Shown in pieces: positions 1,745 through 53,818 of a stretch of DNA of 56,102 nt (position 1 is the stretch's first letter; each line of letters starts with the position of its first letter). A program made the position numbers and the translations under genes. Source of the DNA: a virus (lineage: Duplodnaviria > Caudoviricetes). The stretch spans positions 1-56,102 of the IMG/VR virus record IMGVR_UViG_3300032272_000014, one strand, 5' to 3'. The notes under the pieces were generated by a model that was given only the letters and a program-made list of their open reading frames with translations, had not been told where the DNA came from and made no database searches.

Positions 1745-1746
1745 AA

Positions 1747-1908
1747 ATGGATTATATTGACGATTACGGAATAGATAAATATTGTACTTGTGAAAAACAC
1801 GGTTATGACTCACACACTTGTCCTTTTGCTGAAGAAATACTTGATGATAGTGAAAAAAAATGTAACTGTTGCCCTTACTGCGAGAATGAATGTAGTATGG
1901 CTATTTAA
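1747..1908 (+). CDS. Small Cys-rich (putative metal-binding) protein, 53 aa
   Basis: Hand translation MDYIDDYGIDKYCTCEKHGYDSHTCPFAEEILDDSEKKCNCCPYCENECSMAI; not in ORF track. Confidence 0.6.
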   Translation: MDYIDDYGIDKYCTCEKHGYDSHTCPFAEEILDDSEKKCNCCPYCENECSMAI

Positions 1909-1951
1909 AAAAAACTAGAAACTAAAATAAAACTATAAAAAAATAAATAAG

Positions 1952-2215
1952 ATGCAAGAACTAAAGTATATTTACGCTAGGGAGATAAAAAACAAATTAG
2001 ACACATTTTGGTTTGACTTTAATAAAATACACAAAGCAATAGAAGAACATAAGGAAAACAATAAAAAATATGAAGGTTTTAATATAAAAGAAAAAGTATT
2101 AAACCCATCTTTTGATTTTATAAATGAAGCGAGGCTAGTAGCTTTCTTAAACCAGGAAGTTAGTTTTATATCACAAAATATCGACCAATTAAACGAAGAA
2201 TTTAAAAAACTATAA
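1952..2215 (+). CDS. Hypothetical protein
   Basis: ORF track. Confidence 0.6.
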   Translation: MQELKYIYAREIKNKLDTFWFDFNKIHKAIEEHKENNKKYEGFNIKEKVLNPSFDFINEARLVAFLNQEVSFISQNIDQLNEEFKKL

Positions 2216-2362
2216 AAAAATGATTGTAAAGAACACAAAAACAGGAGAGGACGTTACTAAATATTGCTTACAGTATTTACATGACGAAATTACACAAGAT
2301 GAGTTTGAAAAAAGAACAGGTTTAGACGCTAGAAATATGCGAATAGACGTAAAAAATAAATT

Positions 2363-2587
2363 ATGACACCTAAAGAAGAAGCGAAAAGAATATTTGATGA
2401 GTATGATCGTATCGAAGTAGAAGCACCATTCTACATAATGAGTAGAAATCAAGCTAAACAATGTGCTTTGATTTGTGTGGATGAGACAAGTGGATATTTA
2501 ATAGACATGATAGGTATTGATTGGAATATAAGAAAAATATTTATACAGGAATTGGAAGAAGTAAAAAAAGAAATAGAGAAATTATGA
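2363..2587 (+). CDS. Hypothetical protein (MTPKEEA...AKQCALICVDE small phage protein)
   Basis: ORF track; resembles the next gene. Confidence 0.65.
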   Translation: MTPKEEAKRIFDEYDRIEVEAPFYIMSRNQAKQCALICVDETSGYLIDMIGIDWNIRKIFIQELEEVKKEIEKL

Positions 2588-2820
2588 AAACACCAGAATC
2601 AAAAGCACAAGAAATTATAAACTTACATTATTTTGGTTTATACGAATTGACTAAAAAACCAATACCAGGTGATGTGATGATACAAGCTATTGAGTGTGCT
2701 GTAATAGACGTAAGAAATACTCTAAGGTCATTAGGCAATATAGAAGGTCAGCACTCTACAATTTATGAGGAAGAAGATTTCCTGTTAGAAACTATTAAAT
2801 GCTTAAAAAAAATTCAATGA
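2584..2820 (+). CDS. Hypothetical protein, likely tandem paralog of 2363..2587
   Basis: MKTPESKA...AIECAVIDV vs MTPKEEA...AKQCALICV; ATGA overlap start. Confidence 0.6.
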   Translation: MKTPESKAQEIINLHYFGLYELTKKPIPGDVMIQAIECAVIDVRNTLRSLGNIEGQHSTIYEEEDFLLETIKCLKKIQ

Positions 2821-3032
2821 AAGATAATTTAACAATAAGACAAAAAGAAATAGAAGCTCATAGAGCAATAAATAAACATATTAGGACTACTTTTATGTCA
2901 GAAGTATTAGAAGGGCTTAAACAAGCTGTAAATGATGGTAATACGCCTGAAAGTTGGTTTGAATTAGGAGATAAACGCTTAGAGGAGTATGTTATTAAAA
3001 AATATTGCAATACATGGAGGGAATTGGTTTAA
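2799..3032 (+). CDS. Hypothetical protein
   Basis: ORF track. Confidence 0.55.
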   Translation: MLKKNSMKDNLTIRQKEIEAHRAINKHIRTTFMSEVLEGLKQAVNDGNTPESWFELGDKRLEEYVIKKYCNTWRELV

Positions 3033-3066
3033 ATTAACTATCTTACGAAATCTAATAATTAGTATT

Positions 3067-3606
3067 ATGACTAAAGAAGAAGAAAAAAAAGCGTATAGTA
3101 AAGCATATTACGAGGCTAATAAAAAAAAGTTGAAAGCACACTATGATGCTAATAAAGAAGAAAAAAAAGCGTACGATAAAGCATATTATAAGGCTAATAA
3201 AGAAAAAGTAAAAGAATATAGGGACGCTAATAAAGAAAAGAATAAAGCGTATAGCAAAGCATATTATCAGGTAAATAAAGATAAAAGTAAGGCATATCGT
3301 GAAGCAAATAAGGAAAAGATTAAAGCATATTATAAATATAATAAAGAAGAAAAAAAAGCTTATAGCCAAGTATATAGAAAATCTATAAAACACAAACCAT
3401 TAGTTTATTTATTACCTAAAGAAAATTATGTAGGTACAACAGAATGTATATCTTATAGAATCTCACAACATAAAAACGTAGGTAGAAATACAGAAAAATA
3501 TAAGATACTTAAACGTTTTGAAAATAGGGAAGATGCTCTAGTATTAGAACGTAAAATGCACAATATAGGGTTTAGTGGAAAACACGCAAATAATTCATAT
3601 CAATAA
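3067..3606 (+). CDS. GIY-YIG-like endonuclease with N-terminal KAYYEANKEK repeats
   Basis: LVYLL...YVGTT...RISQH...ALVLE motif; repeated K/A/Y-rich helical units. Confidence 0.6.
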   Translation: MTKEEEKKAYSKAYYEANKKKLKAHYDANKEEKKAYDKAYYKANKEKVKEYRDANKEKNKAYSKAYYQVNKDKSKAYREANKEKIKAYYKYNKEEKKAYSQVYRKSIKHKPLVYLLPKENYVGTTECISYRISQHKNVGRNTEKYKILKRFENREDALVLERKMHNIGFSGKHANNSYQ

Positions 3607-4327: not shown

Positions 4328-4340
4328 ATCTTTGGCTTTA

Positions 4341-4370
4341 TTAACTATACACTATTGTTATAGGCAATCG
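4341..4370 (+). other. attI-like terminal recombination site of array 1
   Basis: TTAACTATACACTATTGTTA is 19/20 identical to the reverse complement of 21881-21900; GTT core at 4357. Confidence 0.6.
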
Positions 4371-4390
4371 CCTTCGGACGCATCCAGAAA

Positions 4391-4573
4391 TCATAAAAGA
4401 TTTTTAAGGTCATTAACCACGGATTTTAGAATATTCATTTTAACTTGGTATTTTAAAGCTAAATCAAACTTTTTACTTTCAGCAAACCTTACTTGCATTT
4501 GACCTAATTCTAAAATCCTTAGTTCGTAACGTTTAATTATCTTTAGTAATTTATCAATGTTTATTTCTTTCAT
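4391..4573 (-). CDS. Cassette hypothetical protein
   Basis: Bracketed by perfect 14-bp IR GTTATAGGCAATCG (4357) / CGATTGCCTATAAC (4606). Confidence 0.65.
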   Translation of the reverse strand: MKEINIDKLLKIIKRYELRILELGQMQVRFAESKKFDLALKYQVKMNILKSVVNDLKNLL

Positions 4574-4859
4574 AACAAATCTTTTATAATTTTCCTCTGT
4601 ATGCTCGATTGCCTATAACGCTCACGGTAAGGCTGCGCATCGGCAACTGTCAAGGATTACTTGACAGTTCATTTATAAACCGAAGGCAACAGCATATAAC
4701 ATAGTATATGAACTATAGATGCGAAGCCTATGCTCTAACCGTGTATGCTTCGCATCCACAGAGCATATACCGTGAGCGTTGTAGGTAATGGCGCATACGT
4801 GTTACTCACTCATACGCTTTAGGTGCGCCACTACCCACAACACGGTATATACATAATCA

Positions 4860-5279
4860 CTAATATTCGTCTTCGTCAGTAAAAGCATCTAAAATTGGCT
4901 TCCAGTTTGCGATAGTTCCAGTTTCGTCAACGTCCATAATAATGTAGTCGCCATAACCGTTTTCTTTTGGACTCATTATCTTTGGTACGTAATCGTCAAT
5001 CTCTTTTACTAACATTTGGTTATCATCCAAAAGTCTGTACCTACCATCATCGCAAACTTTGTAGTGTATTTCAGCTTTTGTACCCTCAACCCAGTTAAGT
5101 ATTTTTCCAGTTTCAATGTTTATTAATGGACACCAGTTTCCACCGCTTCTACAAGGTATTAATTTACCTGTTTCATCTTCATTACCGTTTACTGTGGCAT
5201 CTTCCCAATACCTAACACCTGCCTCTACTTGCAAATACTTAACTTCAAATTCTCGTTTAATTTTTAATTCTACTTTCAT
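4860..5279 (-). CDS. Hypothetical phage protein (VRYWEDATVNG) inside an attC loop
   Basis: ORF lies between arms 4844-4860 and 5321-5337. Confidence 0.75.
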   Translation of the reverse strand: MKVELKIKREFEVKYLQVEAGVRYWEDATVNGNEDETGKLIPCRSGGNWCPLINIETGKILNWVEGTKAEIHYKVCDDGRYRLLDDNQMLVKEIDDYVPKIMSPKENGYGDYIIMDVDETGTIANWKPILDAFTDEDEY

Positions 5280-5489
5280 TTTACTTTCGTTTTTATAATT
5301 AAATTTTGTCTTAAATTCCCGTGACTATGCATATACCAATACGTTGTAGTTAATTGTGCCACATAGGTTTTTTACAATTCTTGCAACGGTTTCTATCTAT
5401 TTTATTTATACTGCACATCTTTGGTTGTTTACATTGGCACAACTTCACTTCGCTAATTTTGATATTTATAATTGCTTTATTCATAACTA

Positions 5490-5678
5490 TTAAATATCGT
5501 CTTTTATATCATCTCTAGTTATTACTTTCGCTTCGTTAACAACAACACTACCTATACGTAATTGCTCTTCAATACCATTTAATTTGTGTAGTAATTTAGA
5601 TTCTGCTTTTATAGATATTTCACCCATATTTTGAAGATGTAATACCTCATATCTTAATTCTTTAATCTTGTCTTTCAT
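5490..5678 (-). CDS. Junction-spanning small protein (EQLRIGSV|V)
   Basis: Site core 5544-5546 read as in-frame Val. Confidence 0.65.
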   Translation of the reverse strand: MKDKIKELRYEVLHLQNMGEISIKAESKLLHKLNGIEEQLRIGSVVVNEAKVITRDDIKDDI

Positions 5679-5775
5679 TTTTGTTATTTTAAGTTATTAA
5701 TCCACGCAACTACGTATAGCCTTTGCCGTTAGAGTGCATTAAAACGCACAATAACAATGTATAAACAAAATACGC

Positions 5776-5979
5776 TCATTCACCACCTAGCTTTTTTAGA
5801 TACCAATTAATATCTTTGCCAGTAGATTTTTTACGCATTTCATCTAAGTCATTTTTAACCTTTTCTTTATTTGTTAATATGTACTTTCTTAGTGCAATCT
5901 TAGCTTTATCAAATTTATCCATTCGCTTTACTTTGTTTATACCTTTGTTAGCGTTCATTGTCTTTTGCTTTTTAACCAT
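5776..5979 (-). CDS. Hypothetical protein in attC loop (true start probably internal MDKFDK)
   Basis: ORF track; loop 5753-5949. Confidence 0.5.
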   Translation of the reverse strand: MVKKQKTMNANKGINKVKRMDKFDKAKIALRKYILTNKEKVKNDLDEMRKKSTGKDINWYLKKLGGE

Positions 5980-6197
5980 TCTTTTAAGCTCTCGTTTGTT
6001 TCGGTGTTTAATGCTTCGTCAATCTTTCGTTCTAATTCTACCAAATCCAACGTAACGCTAACACGTTGTATAAGTAATTGCTTTTCACAGTAATTATCAG
6101 CCAACTTTACTAATTCATTAAACACATAGTCATTACCCAATAAGCTGTCAGGGTCAGGGTGTTCTGTTCTTACAAATTCTAAAAATCCTTTATACAT
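5955..6197 (-). CDS. Junction-spanning small protein (QLLIQRV|S)
   Basis: Core 6060-6062 in frame. Confidence 0.65.
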   Translation of the reverse strand: MYKGFLEFVRTEHPDPDSLLGNDYVFNELVKLADNYCEKQLLIQRVSVTLDLVELERKIDEALNTETNESLKEWLKSKRQ

Positions 6198-6291
6198 ATC
6201 TATTAAGTTTATTAATTATTCACGCAACTACTCATACAACCATACGTTGTAAAACATTAAAACGATTTTACAACACGGTATATAAAACAAA

Positions 6292-6507
6292 CTAACTTAG
6301 TGGTAATTTTTTAGCTATTAATTCATCCCAATGGTCAGTATGTGTTTTTATATCGTCAAACATTGTAATCGTGTACCAGCTTAATTCTGTTTTTGTAAAT
6401 AAGTTAAAGAAGTATTTTTTTTCAATATTCATTTTAACCTTTATTTCCCATTCACCATCACCAAAAAATCTCATTGGCATTTGCTCATAATTTAGTAAAG
6501 TTCTCAT
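6292..6507 (-). CDS. Hypothetical protein in attC loop
   Basis: ORF inside 6272-6554. Confidence 0.6.
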   Translation of the reverse strand: MRTLLNYEQMPMRFFGDGEWEIKVKMNIEKKYFFNLFTKTELSWYTITMFDDIKTHTDHWDELIAKKLPLS

Positions 6508-6564
6508 ATTAAGTTTTTATTTGTTTAATTGTTCGTTTCATATACCAATACGTTGTAAGTAATA

Positions 6565-6744
6565 CTAATCATCTAGTAAAAATCGAAGCAATTTTATTTG
6601 TGCGTTCAATTCGTTTCCTTCTTTTTGGTATTCTTGTACAACATCGTTATCTCTACAGTTTTCGTATTCATAATCAAACCACGCTACAATTAAAGCGTAT
6701 TCTTTTATTTTTCTTTCTAGTGCTTCTTTTACTTTTTTCTTCAT
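6565..6744 (-). CDS. Cassette hypothetical protein, 59 aa (MKKKVKEALERKIKEY...)
   Basis: Hand translation; fills cassette 6552-6784. Confidence 0.6.
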   Translation of the reverse strand: MKKKVKEALERKIKEYALIVAWFDYEYENCRDNDVVQEYQKEGNELNAQIKLLRFLLDD

Positions 6745-6982
6745 CTTATCAAGTTTTTAGTTATATACCCGTACTACTTACAACATCGTGTATATGGCAT
6801 TAAAACGACCACATACACACAGCGTTGTAATCACATTTAAAAACGTGTTACAACAATAAATATAAGTAATGCTTCACTTGGTTTTTAAACCATCTTTTGC
6901 AGATTATTACAGTTGTTGTCCATCCGAAAGGGTTATCTCTGTTTTTCATCGCACTACTCATATTCTTGTCATTAGCAAACAT

Positions 6983-7294
6983 TTATTTGTTAAGGTCTAT
7001 ACAAGTCGGGCAAGTTTCGTGTCCATCCATAAATTGATGCAATCCGCAAAAGTTGGTAAAACGTTTGCTAACATCGTGTATAGGTAATACTAACTTTCCT
7101 GCTTCATACAGAGTTATGTCTTTTAAATGCAAACAATCTTTAGGGTATTCATTCACGTAATAACTTTGCCCAACCAATTTGCAACTTTCACACATTCCTT
7201 CACCACAATACCATTCAATGTATTCAGGGCAACTTTTACTTCTACAAAATTCAGAGAAGTTGTTTACTTTATTGTTTGCTTTACTTTCGTTCAT
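6983..7294 (-). CDS. Junction-spanning Cys-rich protein (LPIHDV|S)
   Basis: Core 7070-7072 in frame; CxxC motifs on both sides. Confidence 0.65.
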   Translation of the reverse strand: MNESKANNKVNNFSEFCRSKSCPEYIEWYCGEGMCESCKLVGQSYYVNEYPKDCLHLKDITLYEAGKLVLPIHDVSKRFTNFCGLHQFMDGHETCPTCIDLNK

Positions 7295-7359
7295 AATTCA
7301 AAATTTTAGTTTTTTAATCCGTACTACCCATACACCAAACGTTACCAAACGTATACTGC

Positions 7360-7590
7360 TTAGTTACGCATATCATCAAAGTATCTTATTGCATCGTCAA
7401 TTGTTTCACAGTCTTTAAGTTCATTTACTATTTCACCAGCAGTAAACGATTTGGTAACACCGTGTATAGTTAATGCTCTAACCACCTTGTTAATTGTCTT
7501 TATATCTTCTGGAGGTATGTTATTTACCTTTCTGTGATTGTTTCTGTTTAAAATCTTTTTAAGCCTATTTGCTATCTCTGTTGCTGTCAT
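7360..7590 (-). CDS. Junction-spanning small protein (LTIHGV|T)
   Basis: Core 7456-7458 in frame. Confidence 0.65.
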   Translation of the reverse strand: MTATEIANRLKKILNRNNHRKVNNIPPEDIKTINKVVRALTIHGVTKSFTAGEIVNELKDCETIDDAIRYFDDMRN

Positions 7591-7661
7591 TGTTATATTT
7601 ATTAAATTAAGTTCTTAAAAGTCGCACTAACCATACACAAGTACCGTTGTAGTGCATTGTG

Positions 7662-7889
7662 CTAAATATCTTCTATCACTATTTTAGGTATGTGTTTAGT
7701 CACTTTAAACTTAACCCTAACGGTTTTACCATCTAAGTCGCACAACGTACCCTCTGGCACAACAACACTACCTATACGTAATTGCTCTTGTTCGCATTCA
7801 TTCCACACCCGTAACAAGGCTTGTTGCACACTTATATTATCAGGATAAGCTGTCTTACTTTGTATTTCTTTAATTCTGTCTGTTGTCAT
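7662..7889 (-). CDS. Junction-spanning small protein (EQLRIGSV|V)
   Basis: Core 7764-7766 in frame. Confidence 0.65.
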   Translation of the reverse strand: MTTDRIKEIQSKTAYPDNISVQQALLRVWNECEQEQLRIGSVVVPEGTLCDLDGKTVRVKFKVTKHIPKIVIEDI

Positions 7890-7957
7890 TATTTCTATTT
7901 ATTAAGTTTTGTGTTTAATTTTCCGCAACTATGCATAGCCTTGTCCATTAACTACAA

Positions 7958-8089
7958 TTATTTTTTTGCCTTCAACACGTGCTCACTCAGTACGTCTTGT
8001 ATGTAGTTTTTTAAGTCCTTATTTGCAAGCACAGCTAATATCTTTAAAGGCTGTACATCTTCTTCTTTTATGTCTATATTTTTACGCAT
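7958..8089 (-). CDS. Ribbon-helix-helix-like regulator, 43 aa
   Basis: Hand translation MRKNIDIKEEDVQPLKILAVLANKDLKNYIQDVLSEHVLKAKK. Confidence 0.55.
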   Translation of the reverse strand: MRKNIDIKEEDVQPLKILAVLANKDLKNYIQDVLSEHVLKAKK

Positions 8090-8225
8090 CTTTTAAATCT
8101 TTATAATAATCAACAATCTTTCTCGCTATTACAAAATACATCGTAGGCGAAATTGAAACACCACCATTTGCATAATCTCTTTGCTCGTGGTATTTCAATA
8201 TTTCTATAATTTTTTCTTCAGTCAT
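8082..8225 (-). CDS. Hypothetical protein, 47 aa
   Basis: Hand translation MTEEKIIEILKYHEQRDY...; tightly coupled to neighbours. Confidence 0.5.
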   Translation of the reverse strand: MTEEKIIEILKYHEQRDYANGGVSISPTMYFVIARKIVDYYKDLKDA

Positions 8226-8228
8226 AAT

Positions 8229-8393
8229 TTATTGTTTTGCGTAAGTTGGAATCTTACCAGTTAAATACATTTTGTAAGCAAATTTAGTAACACCTTCAAA
8301 ATCGTTTTCTATATTTTGTAAATAAGAATCTTGTGAGTTATTAAAGTTGATTCTTGCAGTTCTAAATTCGTTGTAAGTTAATTGAGTTTTCAT
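8229..8393 (-). CDS. Hypothetical protein, 54 aa
   Basis: Hand translation MKTQLTYNEFRTAR...; follows promoter. Confidence 0.55.
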   Translation of the reverse strand: MKTQLTYNEFRTARINFNNSQDSYLQNIENDFEGVTKFAYKMYLTGKIPTYAKQ

Positions 8394-8422
8394 AATTTTT
8401 ATATTTGTTTGTTATTGTTATA

Positions 8423-8455
8423 CAAATATACATTATATATTCCATATACACAACA
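8423..8455 (-). promoter_or_regulatory. Bacteroidota sigma70-type promoter inside a cassette
   Basis: TTG-N20-TATATTTG matches -33/-7 consensus. Confidence 0.6.
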
Positions 8456-8587
8456 TTTATTTAATAATAATTCAAAAAAGTTTTGCTATCGCAATATGCC
8501 AACCCTCAAAATAACAGTAGTTAACAACGTGTATAACGCATTTGCGAAAAGCAAACGACGATTATACACAAGACCGTTACCACACAT

Positions 8588-8920
8588 TTAATGTGATAAT
8601 TTACCCGTTAAGCAATAACCACTACCATCAGGCTTACAAGTTGATTCAGACCATATCATTATAAGTTCTACTTTACCTTCGTATTTTAGTTGTTTAAGAA
8701 GTACAGTTAATATATCAACTGGTATTTCAGTATCTTTAGAAATAGCCCATTTCAATTTACCGTAACCTTTGCTTAACTTTTTTAAGTCATTAATAATAGC
8801 TTCTTTCATTTCTGCAATAGCAGGAGAAAAACGTGTGCTAACAATGGGTATATCACATTGCTTAGTTTCTTCTTGTTTTCTAAGGTTTCTTAATAACATT
8901 CTAAAATTTCCTATTTTCAT
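8588..8920 (-). CDS. Junction-spanning protein (QCDIPIV|S); C-terminal part winged-helix-like
   Basis: Core 8840-8842 in frame; KWAISKDTEIPVDILTVLLKQLKYEGKV. Confidence 0.6.
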   Translation of the reverse strand: MKIGNFRMLLRNLRKQEETKQCDIPIVSTRFSPAIAEMKEAIINDLKKLSKGYGKLKWAISKDTEIPVDILTVLLKQLKYEGKVELIMIWSESTCKPDGSGYCLTGKLSH

Positions 8921-8966
8921 AATTTATTTATTTAATTCGCAACTAACCATACCCAAACCGTTGTAT

Positions 8967-9215
8967 TCAATTAAAATGCCCTCGTCCGCTGCAAGTCAAA
9001 CAACTCTGCTTATCATCGTAGCTTTCGCCTTCCACAATTCCTGTACCATCACAACAAAGGCATTTTAACTGTTCGCTTTGCAATACAACATTGTATAAAT
9101 CAAATAACTCATTAGTTGCTTGTTCAATGCTATAATTACCATACTTAAATTGTTCTAATACCTCTTTTATATCTTCTTTCATATCGTTACTTGTTTTATA
9201 CTTAGCCGTTAGCAA
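8967..9215 (-). CDS. Junction-spanning protein (LYNV|V) with DnaJ-type CxxCxGxG zinc motifs
   Basis: CLCCDGTG and CLTCSGRG; core 9087-9089 in frame; true start probably MKEDIK. Confidence 0.65.
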   Translation of the reverse strand: MLTAKYKTSNDMKEDIKEVLEQFKYGNYSIEQATNELFDLYNVVLQSEQLKCLCCDGTGIVEGESYDDKQSCLTCSGRGHFN

Positions 9216-9310
9216 ACATTAAAACGATTTGCTAACACGTGGTATAGTGCATAGCTTAGGTTCGTGCCTAATTCAATAGTTTGTGTTTGTTTAACCATAA
9301 TTAAAATATT

Positions 9311-9562
9311 TTAATATTCCTTTAGTTCTGGTTTTCGCTCAATCACGTTTAAATGATAGTTTTTTATTATTTGCCTAACAACCTCTTTGGTATCTTCTTT
9401 AAATAAAGGTTTCATTTTACGTTCCATAACGTATTGAAGCTGTATAGTATAATAGCTGTTAGTCCATATAGTATCAGTATCTAATTTACCAAAACTATCT
9501 TGTAAGTCGCTAAATCTTTGTATTTGTTTATCTACAATTATATTTATGAGTTCTTCCAACAT
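9311..9562 (-). CDS. Hypothetical protein in attC loop
   Basis: Bracketed by perfect 21-bp IR 9297-9317 / 9561-9581. Confidence 0.65.
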   Translation of the reverse strand: MLEELINIIVDKQIQRFSDLQDSFGKLDTDTIWTNSYYTIQLQYVMERKMKPLFKEDTKEVVRQIIKNYHLNVIERKPELKEY

Positions 9563-9641
9563 ATTAAAATATTTTAATTATTACTTCAGTTCTTAATTCA
9601 ATCTTCGTACATTTCAAGGCTACGCACCATACCACTAAACG

Positions 9642-9950
9642 TTAGGCGTAATAGCTTTGGTTACGTCTATCCCTTTCTTCATTTTTTAGGTAATAAGCAA
9701 AGTACCAGTTAGGATTTCTTCCTTCTAAAAAAGCTTCTAATATCTCTAAACGCATTTGCTTTCCTTGCCATCTTATTGCATACTCGTCTGTTCCTACACC
9801 AACACCAAAGCTACTGCCTCTCATATTAACATAGTGGTCTAAATCAGCTTTTACCTTTTTATAAAGTTTAAAGTATTTAACAAACTTGTTTTGCATAACA
9901 ACGTGTATATCACATTGCTTTTCCGTACTTAATTCTTTGTTTTGTTTCAT
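9642..9950 (-). CDS. Junction-spanning protein (QCDIHVV|M)
   Basis: Core 9897-9899 in frame; stop codon lies in the next core. Confidence 0.65.
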   Translation of the reverse strand: MKQNKELSTEKQCDIHVVMQNKFVKYFKLYKKVKADLDHYVNMRGSSFGVGVGTDEYAIRWQGKQMRLEILEAFLEGRNPNWYFAYYLKNEERDRRNQSYYA

Positions 9951-10294
9951 TTTATTAAGTTATTTGATTATTCAATATTTCTGTTTATTTATACGCAACG
10001 TGGCATACACAAAACGTTAGCCTTCATTGTCTTATCACTTAATCCGTGATTCTTGTTTAAGTTTTCTATGTATAGTTCAATCATACATAGTTCTTTTTTA
10101 CTTAATTTTCTGTCTATCATATCCATAATTTTACGATTTCATATTACCATTCGTTAGCTACAATGGCGCAATATGAAAACTAAGCATTACGTGTTAGTGC
10201 GCCACAGTAGCTAACACGTAATATAAAAAATTGCTTAGGTCAGTTCCTTGTAATTAAAGTCGTTGCTTAATCGAAGAAAATAAAAAGCTAGTTT

Positions 10295-10504
10295 CTACAA
10301 TTTTTGCAAATGTTCGCTCTTATAAGCATTTATCATTTTACCATTTTCAAGTTCAATCTGTATTTTAAATCCGTAAAAGGCATTTTTTTCAGTGCAATAA
10401 TCTTCTACATTTTTAACAGTTCCTTCCATTCCTATAAAGTTTCCACCTCTAAAAAACACTTTAGTTTCTTTTGGGAATATCTCAGAGGGCAGTCTATTTT
10501 TCAT
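10295..10504 (-). CDS. Small KOW/SH3-like protein in attC loop
   Basis: KVFFRGGNFIGMEGTVKNV pattern. Confidence 0.5.
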   Translation of the reverse strand: MKNRLPSEIFPKETKVFFRGGNFIGMEGTVKNVEDYCTEKNAFYGFKIQIELENGKMINAYKSEHLQKL

Positions 10505-10581
10505 CGCTTTTTATTTTTGGTTTATCTATTAATTTCGTACTTAATTCAGCAACTTTTCATATTACTATTCGTTATATACAA

Positions 10582-10806
10582 TTAAACCGAGGCTAGATTT
10601 TTTATTATATATATAGCTTCTGCTTCTTCAATGTATTGCTTATCAGTTTTGTTTTCTTGATAGTTTAGGTGTATTGGCTTAAACTTGTCTTTTTGGTGTA
10701 GTATTACGCTTTTAAACTCACTTATTACAGGGTTTCTGTCTATAATAATAAAAAATCTTGGGTCACTTAACCAAAGTGTTTTCGCTGTGCTTTTGTATTG
10801 TATCAT
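10582..10806 (-). CDS. Cassette hypothetical protein
   Basis: Between IR GTTATATACAATTAAACC / GGTTTAACAGTATATAAC. Confidence 0.6.
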   Translation of the reverse strand: MIQYKSTAKTLWLSDPRFFIIIDRNPVISEFKSVILHQKDKFKPIHLNYQENKTDKQYIEEAEAIYIIKNLASV

Positions 10807-10972
10807 TTGCTAATGTATTTTAAAGGTTTAACAGTATATAACACTGTATAAAGTCTATTGCTTTTTAAAGCTTTATCAATGTTTAATTATTATTTGTTGT
10901 TTATTATCCACAATTCAAAGGTTTTTGTTGTTTATAAGCAACATACCTTATACAATTCCGTTAGGGCAAATA

Positions 10973-11272
10973 CTACTTATGCATTTTACCGCCATTTAAT
11001 TCACAAAGAAATTTCATAATAGTTTCCATATCAGTATTTCGGTTTGCGTGGCTTAAATAATCTCTTGGTTTTTCATAGTGGTAACTATTGCTTTCAATAT
11101 GCTGTTTGCAAGACTTTTCAGTTAAAAAGGCGTTCTGTAGTTTAAATACTTTTTGCCTGTTTACTTTTCGGTAATTATTTTCTAATATCTCGTCTTTTTC
11201 ATAGTCCGTTAACTCGTTGTATTTTTTTTCAACTTCATCTTCTTCATAATCATAATCTTTTTTAAGTTTCAC
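10973..11272 (-). CDS. Hypothetical protein, possibly N-terminally truncated
   Basis: GTG start directly after a GTT-type core (AAC 11275-11277 on +). Confidence 0.5.
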   Translation of the reverse strand: MKLKKDYDYEEDEVEKKYNELTDYEKDEILENNYRKVNRQKVFKLQNAFLTEKSCKQHIESNSYHYEKPRDYLSHANRNTDMETIMKFLCELNGGKMHK

Positions 11273-18826: not shown

Positions 18827-18889
18827 CAAATATACAAAATTATTTAATATAAAAAAAGCTTTGATATTAAAAAGATTTGTTTATCTTTG
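18827..18889. promoter_or_regulatory. Divergent Bacteroidota promoters
   Basis: TATATTTG on - (18827-18834); TTTG-N18-TATCTTTG on + (18860-18889). Confidence 0.65.
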
Positions 18890-18905
18890 AATTAAATATC
18901 TAAAT

Positions 18906-19076
18906 ATGGATTTGACAAAGCAATTAAAAGAGAGAGGTGTTACTAAAGCAGAAATGTCTCGAAAAATGGGTGTTACATGGAATACGGTAAATAACTGGTG
19001 TAATACAGAATGGAAAAGATTGAGTTACACAACACGAGAAAGGATATGTAAACTGTTAGAGGTTGAGGTGTGCTAA
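18906..19076 (+). CDS. Cro/XRE-like HTH regulator, 56 aa
   Basis: Hand translation LKERGVTKAEMSRKMGVTWNTVNNW...ICKLLEV; not in ORF track. Confidence 0.75.
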   Translation: MDLTKQLKERGVTKAEMSRKMGVTWNTVNNWCNTEWKRLSYTTRERICKLLEVEVC

Positions 19077-19127
19077 CGTTAATCGTATATGATTTTTAAA
19101 AATTAATAAATAAAAACAGAATAAATT

Positions 19128-19349
19128 ATGTGGACAGAAGTAAGTAAACAGACACCAAAATCAGACCAAAACTATGAAGTGTATGGAATTGTAAATGTAG
19201 GTACTAAACACGAAACTAAACAGCAGTTTCAAGCCTACTTTAATACAGAAACCCAAAAATGGGAAAACCACAATTGGGATGATATAAACCCTTGCGATCA
19301 CGAAGTAAAGTTTTGGTATGATTTTGACCAAGTGAAAGAACCGATGTAA
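19128..19349 (+). CDS. Hypothetical protein (DUF551-like W...P...W pattern) in attC loop
   Basis: MWTEVSKQTP...VKFW. Confidence 0.6.
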   Translation: MWTEVSKQTPKSDQNYEVYGIVNVGTKHETKQQFQAYFNTETQKWENHNWDDINPCDHEVKFWYDFDQVKEPM

Positions 19350-19425
19350 TTTTTATTAATTATATACGGTGTTAGCATTAGCGAAGCGTAGTTTTAATTA
19401 ATGCTAACGTATTGGATAAGAATAG

Positions 19426-19683
19426 TTGCGAATTAAAAAACACAAAATTATGAGTTACGATGAAAACAGAATAAGCGACCAGATAGATGGAGGATTGCAC
19501 GAACAAGAGCAATTATTTTTATCTAGTGTTGTGCTTTCGTTGAATTACAACAAGGCAAAGGAATTATTTAATGAACTAATAAACGCTGGTAGAGATATGG
19601 AAAGACGAGATAATTTAAACCAACCATACATAAGCGGTGACGAATACTTACATAATGTGCTTGATAGGTACAAACCTCAATGA
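19426..19683 (+). CDS. Junction-spanning protein (LFLSSV|V)
   Basis: GTT 19528-19530 in frame. Confidence 0.65.
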   Translation: MRIKKHKIMSYDENRISDQIDGGLHEQEQLFLSSVVLSLNYNKAKELFNELINAGRDMERRDNLNQPYISGDEYLHNVLDRYKPQ

Positions 19684-19744
19684 AGCATAACAGACGAGTG
19701 TATGGTTAATAGCGTGGAATTAAGAACTAATTAAATAAAAAGAA

Positions 19745-19987
19745 ATGAATAAAAGTAAATTGTTAAAAGATTTGACAGAAGTTTATGATAATATGTCTGA
19801 TGATATAGACGAACCAAGAGAAGCACTAGGTTATGTGATAAGCGAATTAAAGCTATTAAATATACATGGTGTTATGCGTAGTTGTTTTGATGCTGGTGTA
19901 GAATACCAAAGGCAATTTGAAAGCAAACTATCTGAAAGCTATGACAAACCAAACTTTGAAGAATGGTATCAAAATAATTACGCATAA
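19745..19987 (+). CDS. Junction-spanning protein (LNIHGV|M)
   Basis: GTT 19871-19873 in frame. Confidence 0.65.
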   Translation: MNKSKLLKDLTEVYDNMSDDIDEPREALGYVISELKLLNIHGVMRSCFDAGVEYQRQFESKLSESYDKPNFEEWYQNNYA

Positions 19988-20087
19988 CGTGCCGATTGTA
20001 TGGCACGTATGAGGCACGAATATGGGCTATACAATATGTTAGCCATCTGGCGCGGGTTAATATAACAAAACTTAATTAAACAACGAA

Positions 20088-20465
20088 ATGGAAGAAAAAA
20101 ATTTTAGAATAGGAAACTTAATAGAAGAGCCAAAAGGGTTTACACATAAAATAGGAAGAGTGGACGAACTATCCACACGGGTAAGGCACGGACTGAAAAT
20201 ATCAATACCACACCTTACTGGATTTGGATTTGTGGAAGACAATAACGGCAACTACTGGATAGACTTACAAACTCATTATTTAGAACTTATACCCTCAAAT
20301 GGGTATTGGTATCCCATATACGCCCAAGTGCCTGAAATGAGCCATGAAGATGAACAGCGAGTAAGTACAAATAGGATTGAGTTCGTACACGAATTACAGA
20401 ACTTGTTTTTTGCGTTAACTGGTACTGAACTTGAAATTAAGGCAGAGCGTAGCACTTGTGGCTAA
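20088..20465 (+). CDS. Cassette protein, RIGN...LQNLFFALTG family (paralog of 52296..52649)
   Basis: Shared N- and C-terminal motifs. Confidence 0.75.
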   Translation: MEEKNFRIGNLIEEPKGFTHKIGRVDELSTRVRHGLKISIPHLTGFGFVEDNNGNYWIDLQTHYLELIPSNGYWYPIYAQVPEMSHEDEQRVSTNRIEFVHELQNLFFALTGTELEIKAERSTCG

Positions 20466-20579
20466 CGTTGAGTGTATGAGCAGTAGCCTACACGAACCAA
20501 CCAAAGAGAGATAAAATTAAATATTAAACAACTGCAATAGTTAAAAAGCCTGGCAGCTATTGCTTATACACATTGTTAG

Positions 20580-20780
20580 GTGCTTTTAAAATTAATGAAA
20601 AATTTAACAGTAAAAGAGTTAATTGAACAATTGAAAAAGTTTGATGAGAATAAAGAAGTACAAATTGGTGCAGTAGGTTTTTCAAGTAAAGACAGTTGGG
20701 ATGCTCCACTTGATTTAGAAGAACTTACAGTAGATGAGTTTAAAGGAATTGTTAGGATAAACTTTAGTCTTTACGGTTAA
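20580..20780 (+). CDS. Cassette hypothetical protein (LTVKELIEQLKKFD)
   Basis: ORF track. Confidence 0.6.
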   Translation: MLLKLMKNLTVKELIEQLKKFDENKEVQIGAVGFSSKDSWDAPLDLEELTVDEFKGIVRINFSLYG

Positions 20781-20844
20781 TTTTTATTGCACTTAACGGC
20801 TAAGGCTATGAATAGTTTATTTACGGATTAAAAAAACAGAAACA

Positions 20845-21156
20845 ATGGAAGAAATAACAAAAGAATTAAATAGTGCTACAGAGTACTTACGAGCAATGAA
20901 AAAAAGCGGACACCATAAAGGTGATTGCGATAATATATTAATGCACCTTGCTAACATAGAGGACTTAGTAAATAAATTATTTATAGCCAATGTTAGCGTT
21001 TCGTTTATAGAACAAGTAAAAAAGCAAATAGAATACCACGAAGAACAAGAAACCAACCGAAGCAAGGTAAAAGATTATAGACAAGCAATATACCACGACA
21101 ACAGGCGAGGTGCTTTAGAGGACTTATTATTATGGATTAAGTTAAATGAACGCTAA
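20845..21156 (+). CDS. Junction-spanning protein (LFIANV|S)
   Basis: GTT 20992-20994 in frame. Confidence 0.65.
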   Translation: MEEITKELNSATEYLRAMKKSGHHKGDCDNILMHLANIEDLVNKLFIANVSVSFIEQVKKQIEYHEEQETNRSKVKDYRQAIYHDNRRGALEDLLLWIKLNER

Positions 21157-21202
21157 CGTATTGCTATATGATTAGTGCGGAATTTAAACACGAAATTTAA
21201 TT

Positions 21203-21535
21203 ATGAAAACGGAACTACGAGAAAAGGTTTGGAAGAAATATGATTGCAAATGTTCCTATTGTGGCGAAGATTTGCAATACAAGAAAATGCAAGTTGACCA
21301 CATAGAGGCTAAATACTTGGGAGGTAAAGACGATATTGAAAATTACAACCCATCTTGTAGGCAATGCAATTTCTATAAAAGTACATTTAGCCTTGAACAA
21401 TTTAAACAGCAATTAGCCACAATAACTGAAAGGATTAAGAAACCATTTATAGTAAGACTTGCAATGAAGTATGGTATTATTTCTTTCAAACCTTTTGATG
21501 GTAAATTTTACTATGAAAAACTGAACGAGCATTAA
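21203..21535 (+). CDS. HNH endonuclease inside attC loop
   Basis: CSYCG...VDH...ENYNPSCRQCNFYK. Confidence 0.85.
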   Translation: MKTELREKVWKKYDCKCSYCGEDLQYKKMQVDHIEAKYLGGKDDIENYNPSCRQCNFYKSTFSLEQFKQQLATITERIKKPFIVRLAMKYGIISFKPFDGKFYYEKLNEH

Positions 21536-21585
21536 TTATATAGCGTGTTGTAGCATCGTTTTAATGTGCTACAACGTTAAAATGT

Positions 21586-21873
21586 ATGGTTAGTTGCGTA
21601 GAATTAAATAATAAACTTAATAAAAATATAATGGATTCAAAAGAAATATTAAAAAGATACTGTAAAGCGAAGTATGGAAATGAAATAGTTATAAAAACCT
21701 ATGACATTCAAGAAATTAAGCAAATAATAGACTTTACACAGCAATTAAATATACATAGTGTTAGCCAACAACGTGAACTGTTAATTGGCTTATTGACAAA
21801 ACTTGAAAATGGTGGTGGAAGTGCCTTTATTGATAAAGAACAGATTGTAGATGATTACTTAAAAGCCAATTAA
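21586..21873 (+). CDS. Junction-spanning protein (LNIHSV|S); true start probably MDSKE
   Basis: GTT 21760-21762 in frame. Confidence 0.6.
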   Translation: MVSCVELNNKLNKNIMDSKEILKRYCKAKYGNEIVIKTYDIQEIKQIIDFTQQLNIHSVSQQRELLIGLLTKLENGGGSAFIDKEQIVDDYLKAN

Positions 21874-21925
21874 TTGTGGCTAACAATAGTATATAGTTAA
21901 CTAACAATCACATAACTAATTGATA
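21871..21925 (-). other. attI-like terminal site of array 2 plus IHF-consensus box
   Basis: Matches 4341-4360; TATCAATTAGTTA on - strand at 21913-21925. Confidence 0.6.
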
Positions 21926-53590: not shown

Positions 53591-53787
53591 GAACGCTCTA
53601 ACGTCTGGAACGCTCCAACATTTGAACGCTTTAACAGTTGAACGCTTGACCATGTTGAACGCTCTAGCATTTGAACGCTTTAACAGTTGAACGCTTTAAC
53701 GTCTGGAACGCTTTAACGTCTGGAACGATCTAACAGTTGAACGATCTAACAGTTGAACGATCTAACAGTTGAACGATCTAACATGTT
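53591..53787 (+). repeat. 12 tandem 16-17-bp repeats (GAACGMTYTAACAGTT-like)
   Basis: GAACG at 53591, 53608, 53624, 53640, 53657, 53673, 53689, 53706, 53723, 53739, 53755, 53771. Confidence 0.9.
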
Positions 53788-53818
53788 ATATTTGCACCCT
53801 GTTTTATAGCATAGGTTT

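Follow-up and report, generated by a model that had tools for sequence, protein, structure and literature searches.

Plasmid dif (pdif) modules of Acinetobacter lie between recombinase sites whose orientation alternates, namely 28-bp duplex XerC/XerD sites, and the Xer-type enzyme is encoded elsewhere. Integron integrases of archaea have reportedly been described by Ghaly et al. in 2022, and the PeSLs of T4-type phages are said to be treated by Comeau et al. in 2014. In the passages of Arbiol et al. (2010; PMC2839356) that concern lytic T4-type phages, PeSLs are repeated stem-loops between small non-essential ORFans of hyperplastic regions, each made up of a strong sigma-70-like promoter and a terminator, which recombine by homology and are tied to modular gene gain, loss and replacement as well as to mini-circles. 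For the Bacteroidetes, the relevant part of the IntegronFinder 2 study reports nothing beyond In0 elements and a single complete integron, that of Salinibacter (PMC9024848). Clusters of attC sites without integrase are already known from phages: the sections of Qi et al. (2023; PMC9892861) devoted to them describe such clusters in virulent phages, including the Polaribacter phage P12002L with its Flavobacteriaceae host, give two predicted sites as the minimum for a CALIN (attC cluster without integron-integrase), detail the three-site array of TJE1 and report that one P12002L attC was recombined by IntI1 in an assay. The first-pass annotation of the DNA analysed here had called integron arrays rarely reported in phages, a statement that has to be qualified by these integrase-less clusters in print. 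The name Cellulophaga has no occurrence in the main text of that paper, and its sections on phage CALINs connect these neither with a site family of the Bacteroidota nor with a Xer-like recombinase. Compared with the three sites of TJE1 given there, the locus described below has 29 sites over ~9.5 kb.

Two arrays of attC-like sites in a phage genome

The window, i.e., the whole stretch of 56,102 nt that was analysed, is the record IMGVR_UViG_3300032272_000014, which is rated 100% complete and has terminal repeats. Its two arrays hold some thirty very small accessory genes, and we think it probable that these are gene cassettes strung together with attC-like sites between them, on which a borrowed recombinase acts. 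Array 1 (4330..10975, minus strand) has 20 AAC-type sites on the coding strand, from 10960 to 4357, which delimit 19 AAC-to-AAC units; the 24 small ORFs of these units are without exception minus-strand genes. Of the 20 sites, 18 are complete (AAC...GTT, the partner being L'-spacer-GTT) and two read AAT. Sites of the form AAC-spacer-arm...arm'-spacer-GTT, of which the first-pass annotation had counted ~18, are thus confirmed at the coordinates given there. Array 2 (19075..21910, plus strand) has nine AAC sites, eight of them complete, and one ORF per unit. Neither a tyrosine (PF00589) nor a serine (PF00239) recombinase was found by profile search of the whole record, in agreement with the earlier view of a complete genome without integrase.

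Read along its coding strand, array 1 begins with a complete element of 123 nt (10840..10962; AAC 10960, GTT 10842; match to the covariance model described below at 10830-10972, 52.3 bits), followed by one of 361 nt (10213..10573) with ORF 10295..10504 within its loop and by a lone 5' half with AAC 10153 and left arm (10128..10165), for which no GTT partner was found. The next elements are 122 nt (9897..10018; holding the start of ORF 9642..9950; 59.6 bits), 410 nt (9234..9643; ORF 9311..9562 within the loop), 124 nt (9087..9210; start of ORF 8967..9182; 39 bits) and 123 nt long (8840..8962; start of ORF 8588..8920; 58.4 bits), and a mini element of 53 nt (8526..8578; 37 bits) comes after them. 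Elements of 186 nt (7764..7949, 5' core AAT), 193 nt (7456..7648) and 274 nt (7070..7343) hold the starts of ORFs 7662..7889 and 7360..7590 and most of ORF 6983..7294, respectively. An element of 122 nt, again with the 5' core AAT (6852..6973), and a mini element of 45 nt (6782..6826; 30.6 bits) precede one of 283 nt (6272..6554) with ORF 6292..6507 within its loop, one of 189 nt (6060..6248) with the start of ORF 5955..6197, one of 197 nt (5753..5949) that is traversed by ORF 5776..5979, and one of 187 nt (5544..5730), whose right arm at 5539-5569 is identical to 7759-7789. The array ends with an element of 507 nt (4839..5345) enclosing ORF 4860..5279 in its loop, one of 164 nt (4617..4780) with a structured, ORF-free loop, and a final 5' half with AAC 4357 (4330..4359). 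On the plus strand, array 2 consists of elements at 19075-19373, 19406-19530, 19689-19873, 19986-20040, 20464-20577, 20795-20994, 21155-21549, with the HNH endonuclease ORF 21203..21535 within its loop, and 21573-21762, and of a lone 5' half at 21882. Lengths of 122-125 nt (6/26) and 185-200 nt (8/26) recur among the phage elements, and six of the 26 have loops of ~230-450 nt that enclose a whole ORF and would be expected to fold poorly. ORF starts often lie within a hairpin loop, and stops usually in the next AAC or 1-19 nt before it.

A site family shared with bacterial chromosomes

The sites belong to a mostly Bacteroidota family with the consensus 5'-[AATK-N6-AAC]-6 nt-GTATATGnnTAGTTGCG-variable loop-GCAATTAnnTATAC-3 to 5 nt-[GTT-N6-NRTT]-3'. 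Cellulophaga and Polaribacter chromosomes carry the same family, with length classes near 125 and 188 nt, so that the comparison with Flavobacteriaceae sites suggested in the first-pass annotation turned out positive. A covariance model of 18 pairs was trained on 49 bacterial elements only; eight of its pairs show compensatory changes, and its G.T wobbles are kept in 48/49, 39/49 and 49/49 sequences. Applied to the 56-kb window, this model gives 13 matches at E<0.1 (7e-14 to 0.08), the best with 72 bits (E 7e-14) and 68.7 bits (E 4e-13). Since a bacterial-only model recovers these 13 elements, all within the two arrays and on their coding strands, the site pattern goes beyond chance. In an alignment fitted to the model, 94.7% of the paired cells of the 13 window elements pair, compared to 81% after shuffling and 26-49% with partners slid, nine of the 18 pairs show double changes and the bacterial wobbles are retained. 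The compensatory changes and conserved wobbles point to a folded single strand, namely the coding strand in phages and the opposite strand in bacteria.

The footprint of cassettes was scored by comparing the 10 nt after each GTT with the reverse complement of the 10 nt before an AAC. In array 1 the mean is 7.1/10 against the next AAC (at least 7 in 12/18), compared to 3.6/10 when the AAC is the element's own and 3.64/10 when all are paired with all (at least 7 in 26/360). The eight elements of array 2 reach 6.75 against the next and 3.4 against their own AAC, and the bacterial arrays 6.17 (at least 7 in 24/47), 3.47 (3/91) and 3.26 for next, own and random, respectively. The complementarity between the sequences after one GTT and before the next AAC was thus rightly noticed at first pass, and its examples GTTATAGGCAATCG/CGATTGCCTATAAC and GTTGTAAGTAATAC/GTACTACTTACAAC lie at 4619/4357 and 6784/6552. 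That the elements arose by chance, or are MITE- or REP-like palindromes with terminal inverted repeats of their own, is extremely improbable: they are palindromic and multicopy, but own-flank complementarity stays at background in phage and bacteria alike, and the surroundings of the arrays showed neither a transposase nor a RAYT gene. Together with model E-values down to 7e-14, this background level contradicts such an origin.

As in integron arrays and CALINs, inverted AAC...GTT cores are combined with spacers that stay unpaired and differ in length, with a second box that pairs and with a loop of variable size. Each site is complementary in its distal part to the beginning of the following one, and units mostly hold a single ORF, all in the same orientation; like a CALIN, the window lacks an integrase. 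Different from both, the second box is strongly conserved (GTATATGnnTAGTTGCG / GCAATTAnnTATAC), core pairing reaches ~13 nt, and it is the folding strand that carries the phage ORFs, whose starts are often within the site. The attC geometry seen at first pass holds, with the correction that the phage ORFs, being on this "bottom-like" strand, have the opposite orientation to those of bacterial cassettes.

The recombinase of the bacterial arrays

In Cellulophaga and Polaribacter chromosomes a tyrosine recombinase of 370-386 aa adjoins the cassette arrays (G002, L155; G004, L154; G006, L224). In G012 (L225) the elements lie 6-16 kb from it, and in G015 this covariance model finds no element within 40 kb. 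All 21 Cellulophaga genomes have a match at E<=1e-40, 12 of them nearly full-length with at least 59% identity. The bacterial cassettes encode a HigB/HigA-like pair, CdiI, a glyoxalase and AAA_21+DUF4435, and this toxin-antitoxin, immunity and defence-like content resembles that of sedentary integrons; the adjoining tyrosine recombinase is a further feature in common with integron arrays. The enzyme resembles XerA and IntI: it scores 238.8 bits against NCBIfam NF040815 (archaeal XerA; cut-off 220), and its best solved relative is XerC-like/XerA 4a8e (158.7 bits), followed by IntI4 2a3v (134.3 bits); the enzyme itself is bacterial. Against NCBIfam TIGR02249 it reaches 209 bits in two stretches, skipping model positions 180-238, which is under the cut-off of 265. 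Unlike integron integrases, it lacks the IntI-specific insertion, has ~110 extra N-terminal residues and is encoded in the same orientation as the cassettes. Strictly speaking, the system is therefore integron-like rather than an integron. The first reading is partly upheld, by the cassette sites and the tyrosine recombinase that adjoins them in bacteria; the enzyme differs from the IntI assumed there. The "integrase" of phage Ingeline, encoded beside such sites, is 36% identical to the array recombinase (E 5e-43). As a separate element, an IS91 transposase adjoins a short recombinase at L150.

Unit boundaries

The boundary G^TT assumed at first pass is crossed by 13 of the 33 ORFs of both arrays, compared to three of 33 at AA^C of the 5' core, where a crossover would leave 30 of 33 intact. 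The unit is therefore better read from AAC to AAC. Comparison with other contigs and phages yields homology ends at GTT (21549, 8837, 6850, 5544, 10213), as had been predicted, but also at AAC; internal ends in contigs of three other metagenomes lie at 6551/6552, 8959, 6971 and 6850. No recombination event was observed in this comparison, which is limited to assembled contigs. A single AA^C crossover does not account for element 10213-10573, both halves of which are common to the phages Ingeline and phi46:3 with 79-95% identity, while the enclosed ORFs are unrelated.

Such swaps between conserved halves would be explained by duplex Xer-type core sites as in the Acinetobacter pdif modules, each half (AAC-6 nt-GTATA, or its inverted copy TATAC-N-GTT) being a crossover site of its own and every interval exchangeable. 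As in pdif modules, half-sites alternate in orientation and the recombinase is not self-encoded; ORFs occur in both kinds of interval, homology ends at AAC and GTT alike, and the array recombinase scores against XerA and XerD about as against IntI. We nevertheless consider this quite improbable. The spacers are unequal (6 nt vs 3-5 nt), the halves, unlike pdif sites, form a hairpin that shows covariation and an asymmetry of wobbles, and in bacteria a dedicated recombinase lies next to the sites. Moreover, the bacterial halves are always paired within 45-210 nt with ORFs exclusively outside, and judged by eye only, the half-site arms are not inverted-repeat-like.

Possible regulation of the arrays

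It is unlikely, though conceivable, that the sites are regulatory hairpins on mRNA or DNA (processing, stability, translation start) and that shuffling is PeSL-like, solely by homologous recombination and with no site-specific recombinase. The G.U-compatible folding strand is the sense strand in 10 of the 11 viral loci with model matches (38 matches examined) and in both window arrays, start codons lie within loops, and with 9 copies against 1.9 expected the coding strand is enriched in the leader motif AACTTAA. Repeated stem-loops stand between small ORFs as in PeSLs, whose mini-circles, in the passages concerned (PMC2839356), provide a precedent. Three phages keep both halves of 10213-10573 with different ORFs between them, and assembly graphs break within conserved arms. 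However, different from PeSLs as portrayed in those passages, the window has no excess of sigma-70-like promoters (27 found vs 37 +/- 6.6 expected) or terminators (5 vs 3.0 +/- 1.8), has a core-specific footprint and has homologous host sites with a dedicated recombinase. Neither regulation nor homologous recombination would lead one to expect complementarity to the next rather than the own AAC, and the same family lies antisense in the bacterial arrays adjoining the recombinase.

The promoter consensus of Bacteroidetes is TTTG ... TAnnTTTG. A candidate of this type lies ahead of array 2 (18850..18890, plus), and an AT-rich TAnnTTTG match at 8395..8440 (minus) is a candidate internal promoter inside the three-ORF unit of array 1. 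TAnnTTTG motifs do not occur cassette by cassette in the arrays, which also speaks against hairpins as regulators; the arrays look like operons served by few upstream promoters.

Proposed mechanism

Returning to cassettes worked by a borrowed recombinase, the written strand ("T strand") would form an imperfect hairpin in which G.T wobbles are conserved, and would correspond to the bottom strand of integron attC sites, the recombinogenic one. The recombinase could be supplied by the host or by a co-infecting phage such as Ingeline, and it would act on sites that fold in single-stranded intermediates of replication. With cleavage at AA^C in the 5' core, AAC-to-AAC units, in phages with the site first and the ORF on the same strand, would be excised, inserted or exchanged. 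We infer catalysis, cut position and single-strand folding, and likewise that a host enzyme recombines the phage sites.

Relatives and possible gene exchange

In a tblastn search of 84 viral loci, including all 63 helicase relatives, 22 of 24 array-1 and 8 of 10 array-2 ORFs have no match, whereas flanking core genes are matched in 50-63 loci. The comparison with related phages called for at first pass thus reveals hypervariable arrays between conserved core genes, and the arrays are wholly different even between relatives with helicases 45-76% identical. That they are inert relics, i.e., a footprint of past pick-up that persists without present-day recombination in this phage, is very doubtful. 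The genome has no recombinase, several sites show degeneration, two with an AAT core (7947, 6971) and three as lone halves (10153, 4357, 21882), and the phi19:1 homolog of ORF 9642..9950 has only a decayed copy of the motif. Against this, the complete elements (n=26; pairing measured in 13) keep pairing with compensatory changes and retain the canonical length classes, relatives differ as described, and copies that are identical or nearly so turn up in other metagenomes; element 6852..6973 has 0 differences to a copy in a freshwater metagenome contig, where the flanks differ.

No nucleotide-level similarity to array 1 was found in any of the 21 Cellulophaga genomes, with 14 of 97-250 candidates per genome scored; exchange of arrays between phage and host is therefore not seen. 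Cassette-size pieces are common to at least eight cultured Cellulophaga phage lineages and to Polaribacter phages, so that units and half-sites are shared among unrelated phages, and the sequence shared with Cellulophaga phages makes Cellulophaga the probable host of the uncultured phage. That the phage sites are of the family used by the host bacteria in their integron-like arrays suggests that such marine Flavobacteria phages exchange genes via a borrowed recombinase. In the Polaribacter phage P12002L, three model matches, which may include the two sites given for this phage by Qi et al. (2023; PMC9892861), flank methyltransferase and Mom-like genes.

Sites of one family in Bacteroidota

An exact-pattern scan of species-representative genomes found the motif of the phage sites at at least 120 loci, most of them in Bacteroidota and many of those in Flavobacteriaceae, including two from Cellulophaga, while a minority lay in other phyla or in archaeal bins. 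The motif was at one stage considered as promoter of a particular bacterial gene or as the end of an IS element, which was dropped because the genes beside it differ. At the Bacteroidota loci it makes up the left arm of imperfect palindromes with the consensus [AATK-N6-AAC]-G-N5-[GTATATGnnTAGTTGCG]-loop-[GCAATTAnnTATAC]-N3-5-[GTT-N6-NRTT], which occur in length classes of ~70, ~125, and ~188 nt. Each locus has several such elements in a single orientation and at a spacing of 0.6-3 kb.

In an alignment of 49 diverse bacterial copies the consensus hairpin comprises 18 pairs, eight of them with compensatory changes, and three G.T wobbles are retained in 48, 39, and 49 of the 49 sequences, respectively. 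The strand folding with these wobbles, here called the T strand, is the better folder, because the wobble positions become A.C mismatches on the complementary strand. Its 5' spacer is 6 nt long and its 3' spacer 3-5 nt. Unequal spacers of this kind are the asymmetry of the attC bottom strand of integrons, and the canonical spacer lengths and strand choice of attC sites were the yardstick for comparing the elements. According to Qi et al. (2023; PMC9892861), attC bottom strands are the more recombinogenic ones. The architecture of attC, R''(..AAC)-spacer-L''...loop...L'-spacer-R'(GTT..) in an imperfect hairpin, is found in the alignment and fold of the 49 copies, in the matches within the phage genome described below and in their pair counts.

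A covariance model was built from the bacterial alignment only and applied, with filters switched off, to the complete window. At E<0.1 there were 13 matches, all inside the arrays: nine in array 1 (4330-10975, minus strand) and four in array 2 (19075-21910, plus strand). The best scores were 72.0, 68.7, 59.6, and 58.4 bits; 42 weaker matches (E 0.15-10) were scattered. In an alignment fitted to the model, 94.7% of the paired cells of the 13 phage copies can pair, vs. 81.2% after shuffling and 26-49% when the partners are slid; in this same fitted alignment, double changes occur at 9 of 18 pairs and the bacterial wobbles are likewise kept. As to the comparison with Flavobacteriaceae sites that the first-pass annotation had proposed, Cellulophaga and Polaribacter carry the same family. 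At gathering score Rfam had no family in the window, and in eight bacterial loci it gave only unrelated DUF805 and Flavo-1 matches.

A nearly invariant 126-nt variant of the element, with the left arm GTATATGCGTAGTTGCGGGATTTCAAGGCAC..., often lies near contig ends (L040, L042, L048, L065, L071, L083, L089, L101, L119, L126, L131, and other loci). It occurs in Bacteroidales, Ignavibacteria, Chlorobiota, and Cytophagales, and also in bins labelled Spirochaetes or Woesearchaeota, which suggests that a subfamily has been spreading recently or that a mobile element carries it.

The two cassette arrays of the phage

Between 4071 and 11272 every gene is tiny and on the minus strand, and behind most stop codons the coding strand has the motif x'-YAAC-G-N5-GKTATRTG-NN-TAGTTGCG. 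The matches of a profile made from 15 copies are confined to the coding strands of array 1 and of the second array at 19.0-21.9 kb; loose half-site regular expressions gave counts no greater than in shuffles. Array 1 has 20 AAC-type sites, 18 of them with a downstream partner ...ATTAnnTATAC-N2-6-GTT, and array 2 has nine, eight with a GTT partner, which confirms the AAC...GTT sites noticed at first sight. Together the 29 sites cover ~9.5 kb or 17% of the genome. A reading in which GTT...AAC hairpins enclose the genes was given up, as the bacterial copies show the AAC...GTT unit. The elements of array 1 (minus strand) measure 123, 361, 122, 410, 124, 123, 53, 186, 193, 274, 122, 45, 283, 189, 197, 187, 507, and 164 nt, those of array 2 (plus strand) 299, 125, 185, 55, 114, 200, 395, and 190 nt. 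The bacterial length classes recur in them, even where an ORF starts in the loop.

The claim that the sequence after a GTT is complementary to that before the next AAC proved correct. Between the 10 nt past GTT and the complement of the 10 nt that precede the next AAC, 7.1 of 10 positions agree in array 1 and 6.75 in array 2, vs. 3.6 and 3.4, respectively, for the element's own AAC and 3.64 for all sites against all. At the bacterial loci the score is 6.17 of 10 for the next element (at least 7 in 24 of 47 cases), vs. 3.47 for the own one (3 of 91) and 3.26 for random pairs. Phage and bacteria therefore share the footprint of cassettes, with 6.2-7.1 for the next site, 3.4-3.6 for the own site and a background of 3.3-3.6. 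A MITE or REP-type element was rejected, with own-flank complementarity at background and neither a transposase nor a RAYT beside the examined arrays. Modules of dif type (pdif) have 28-bp duplex sites of alternating orientation, each composed of XerC site, 6 bp, and XerD site, and may also be considered: the half-sites of the phage arrays alternate, and by eye the arms of the phage sites are not obvious inverted repeats and their spacers are unequal.

Two further repeats lie within array 1. An identical stretch of 31 nt at 5539-5569 and 7759-7789, comprising the right arm, GTT and 6 nt of two elements, lies within two otherwise unrelated ORFs that both read EQLRIGSVVV, and the source sample's own contig breaks at this repeat. 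Furthermore, a perfect 21-nt inverted repeat (ATAATTAAAATATTTTAATAT; 9297-9317 and 9561-9581) flanks ORF 9311..9562 in the loop of element 9234-9643.

Units, strand, and expression

The bottom strand of attC is cut at AA^C of the 5' core. A crossover at AA^C in the 5' core of the folding strand would make the unit of the phage run from AAC to AAC, with the site first and the stop codon of the ORF last. In array 1 an AAC follows 1-19 nt behind a stop codon at 13 of the 20 sites, with TAAC itself supplying the TAA of several of these stops. Of 33 ORFs, only 3 run across AA^C, two of these doubtful (44-45 aa), vs. 13 that run across G^TT. One ORF per unit is found in 16-17 of 19 units of array 1 and in all nine of array 2. 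In 13 units ORFs start inside the loop, in six they are wholly in the loop, and in the others wholly behind the site. The GTT is in frame in 12 of the 13 ORFs crossing it, which was set aside as evidence because it is probably forced by stops in the other frames (TAA in ATTAA, TAG in GTTAG). Among the 34 phage array ORFs, only an HNH endonuclease and a Cro/C1-type HTH protein scored above the Pfam cut-off.

All 13 model matches of the window lie on coding strands, and among 38 matches examined in 11 viral loci the coding strand is the T strand at ten; the eleventh (L013) has a single match with coding sequence on both strands. In bacteria, at three scored loci and in the arrays mapped earlier, the T strand is opposite to the coding strand. 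Gene orientation is thus strictly inverted between phage and host arrays, which is a new and unexplained regularity.

We also considered that each repeat might bring its own strong sigma-70-like early promoter and terminator stem-loop, as the stem-loop cassettes (PeSL) of T4-type phages do. This class was rejected for array 1, where sigma-70-like promoters (27 vs. 37 +/- 6.6 expected) and terminators (5 vs. 3.0 +/- 1.8 expected) are not in excess. In Bacteroidetes the promoter box has the consensus TAnnTTTG. A candidate TTTG...TAnnTTTG promoter precedes array 2 (18850-18890, box at 18882), and inside array 1 the box occurs once, at 8430. Since TAnnTTTG boxes are not seen at each repeat, the arrays resemble operons rather than chains of promoter cassettes of the PeSL type. 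The hairpins of the sense strand may alternatively have a regulatory role. No attI site was definable in phage or bacteria.

Bacterial arrays and their recombinase

Downstream of a gene for a 380-aa tyrosine recombinase in Cellulophaga sp. G002 (L155) come, in the orientation of that gene, an ORF with AAA_21 and DUF4435 domains and then at least seven cassettes, separated by elements and reaching the contig end. In a Polaribacter bin (G004, L154) three elements follow a 370-aa homologue, and on the complete chromosome G006 eight model matches (seven at E <= 3e-15, one at 0.0013) begin 0.8 kb from the recombinase gene. G012 has six matches 6-16 kb from this gene and G016 one at ~10 kb; G015 has none within 40 kb, and the contig of G001 stops 1.7 kb past the gene. 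A recombinase match at E<=1e-40 is present in all 21 Cellulophaga species genomes searched, in 12 of them with at least 59% identity over nearly the full length. The bacterial cassettes encode, among others, a Gp49/HTH pair (HigB/HigA-like), CdiI_3, DMP19, a glyoxalase, hydrolases, and DUF6090; sedentary chromosomal integrons carry cassettes of this sort.

With the NF040815 model (“site-specific tyrosine recombinase/integron integrase,” cut-off 220) the array recombinase scores 238.8 bits, with the integron integrase model TIGR02249 (cut-off 265) 209 bits and with XerD 204, and the host array recombinases altogether score 175-209 bits against TIGR02249, all under the cut-off. The TIGR02249 alignment falls into two stretches and skips model positions 180-238. 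Among solved structures the XerC-like 4a8e is the closest relative, followed by IntI4 (2a3v), whose match is likewise split in two. By these results the enzyme is XerA/IntI-like and devoid of the IntI-defining insertion. The proposal that a host IntI reshuffles the cassettes of the phage is partly supported, in that sites of this family lie beside a tyrosine recombinase in the likely host genus; this recombinase lacks the IntI insertion.

Further observations concern single loci. The AAA_21-DUF4435 fusion, the first ORF past the array recombinase at L155 (6093-7700), has a domain pair known from PARIS-type anti-phage defence, and further cassettes there encode a HigB/HigA-like pair and a Clp_N-domain protein. 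At L150 (contig 44 of Cellulophaga sp. G001; 1460-3199) an IS91-family transposase follows a short ORF for a tyrosine recombinase (200 aa counted from the first ATG, open frame 298 aa), and two family elements lie 0.9 and 2.8 kb beyond, i.e., the same sites in a different mobile context.

Relatives of the phage and probable exchange of cassettes

For 24 kb of structural genes, which are of siphovirus type (tape measure protein, portal, terminase), megablast found no close cultured relative, and the best match of the portal is below 25% identity. Wherever the two arrays match cultured phages at the nucleotide level, the piece shared is of cassette size. Of the 26 records matched by array 1, 25 belong to Cellulophaga phages; the matches of array 2 are to phages of Cellulophaga and Polaribacter and, with the HNH gene alone, to six Streptococcus phage records. 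As these cassette-size matches point to phages of Cellulophaga and Polaribacter, the host is probably a Cellulophaga or a near relative.

Among 84 loci searched with tblastn, including 63 that share a 45-76% identical helicase, 30 of the 34 array ORFs have no match; in the helicase relatives the ORFs of array 1 have none, and the adjoining core genes are present in 50-63 of these loci. Pieces shared with other phages are of unit size. The HNH unit 21133-21550 is 73% identical to Polaribacter phage P12002L from just before AAC through GTT, and element 20464-20577 is 90% identical in phi18:3. Ingeline and phi46:3 have both halves of element 10213-10573 at 79-95% identity, and the intervening ORFs of the three phages are unrelated; such a swap of ORFs between conserved halves needs more than a single AA^C crossover. 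In three other metagenomes contigs carry parts of array 1, with homology ending within the contig at 6551/6552 (two studies), 8959, and 8837, and at 6971 and 6850 (a 122-nt element, no differences). Joints in the contig mapping have sides of 20-60 nt and may reflect arm similarity alone, and no recombination event was directly visible in the mapped contigs. Summed depth is highest in bins with short complete elements. The homology ends fall at both AAC and GTT cores, which fits site-linked exchange and is compatible with a cut in either arm. The first-pass annotation had proposed breakpoints at G^TT; the ends seen here are not restricted to that core. As array 1 has no nucleotide-level match in the 21 Cellulophaga genomes (14 candidates per genome scored), any cassette traffic appears to run from phage to phage.

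Other phages with the sites

The model found six, eight, seven, and six elements in the viral contigs L006, L007, L009, and L021, respectively, three in phi46:3 and one in phi19:1. Of the 63 helicase relatives 48 were scanned, and three had matches, with 2-3 elements each; the closest ones (L159, L160, L164) had none, even with filters off. In P12002L (L226) three strong matches, at about 38030-38100, 38870-38945, and 39110-39255 of NC_028924, flank DNA methyltransferase and Mom-like genes. Qi et al. (2023; PMC9892861) describe a CALIN, i.e., an attC cluster without integron-integrase, of P12002L “encoding two putative DNA methyltransferases,” and one of its sites was recombined into attI1 by IntI1.

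No tyrosine (PF00589) or serine (PF00239) recombinase was found in the window, so the absence of an integrase noted at first sight stands. In Ingeline, family elements lie directly upstream of a gene for a 263-aa “integrase,” which aligns over its whole length with the array recombinase of Cellulophaga at 36% identity (E 5e-43). At this locus (Ingeline_1, L003, 5163-6430) the “integrase,” directly downstream of cassettes with family sites, corresponds to the array recombinase minus its N-terminal 110 residues, and the locus may be a complete phage-borne platform. The phi46:3 recombinase gp034 was also considered and is unrelated to the array recombinase. In phi19:1 (L001, 5034-5400) and phi10:1 (L002, 3199-3531) a homologue of ORF 9642..9950 stands alone in reverse orientation, with a terminator hairpin of the ordinary kind and only decayed site remnants, and may represent a cassette lost from an array.

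Classification and proposed mechanism

Among known kinds, integron arrays, CALINs, and the CALINs that Qi et al. (2023) describe from phages come closest. Provided that the sites count as attC-type, the 20 and nine sites are CALINs, with at least two attC close together and no integrase nearby. An IntI with its specific additional domain next to an array was found neither in the window, which has no recombinase, nor in the hosts, whose enzymes score below the cut-off. The interpretation as an integron array consequently stands for attC architecture and cassette footprint but not for the defining feature IntI, and because of the latter we file the system outside the integron family in the strict sense, integron-like as it is in mechanism. 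The most likely mechanism, and one we consider rather probable, would be recombinase-mediated cassette exchange at folded attC-like sites, with the enzyme supplied by the host or by a co-infecting phage. Catalysis at the core has indirect support from the homology ends at the cores in other phages and metagenomes and from the IntI1 assay of Qi et al. on a P12002L site.

Taken as a whole, a broader reading can be put forward tentatively: Flavobacteriaceae and their phages might share an undescribed class of integron, in which a XerA-like recombinase without IntI insertion would act on a strongly conserved hairpin site. At least five phage families would keep ORFan accessory genes as cassettes on the folding strand, with translation starting inside the site and genes possibly serving host takeover or anti-defence, and would trade them from phage to phage via the host recombinase or a phage-borne one as in Ingeline. 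Since at least one cassette in host arrays of these sites is defence-like (AAA_21-DUF4435), both sides of the arms race may diversify with one recombination machinery.

To the survey of the IntegronFinder 2 paper (PMC9024848) Bacteroidetes contributed only In0 elements and one complete integron (Salinibacter). In the part of the literature that was searched, we found no description of the bacterial array system, of a Bacteroidota site family with a conserved second box or of its pairing with an insertion-less XerA/IntI-like recombinase. The same applies to phage arrays of this size, inverted gene orientation in phages, ORFs beginning inside the site and a phage that, like Ingeline, bears the recombinase. 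PMC13616975, considered as an account of the bacterial system, is unrelated.

If the sites are active, they would give lytic phages a site-specific route of gene shuffling and account for the ORFan-rich hypervariable regions in phages of marine Flavobacteria. Integron-type capture would then reach the Bacteroidota, where IntegronFinder surveys have almost none, through an enzyme without the domain that is the hallmark of IntI. A direct test is feasible, since the host genus and Ingeline, phi46:3, phi18:3, and P12002L are cultured, candidate recombinases are named and a cut at AA^C is predicted on a defined strand.

Further features of the phage genome

The virus record is rated complete (56.1 kb, terminal repeats). 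GC skew tracks transcription direction only, and therefore gives no position for an origin between the arrays. At 53600-53960 direct repeats form a dense block, which contains ~15 copies of a ~16-nt unit (GAACGCTYTAACRNYT-like) and then three copies of GTAGCTATAGTCTTGTGAT, with two copies of AGGTCAAGTCAACCTTTC ahead, and looks like an iteron-type origin or a packaging region.
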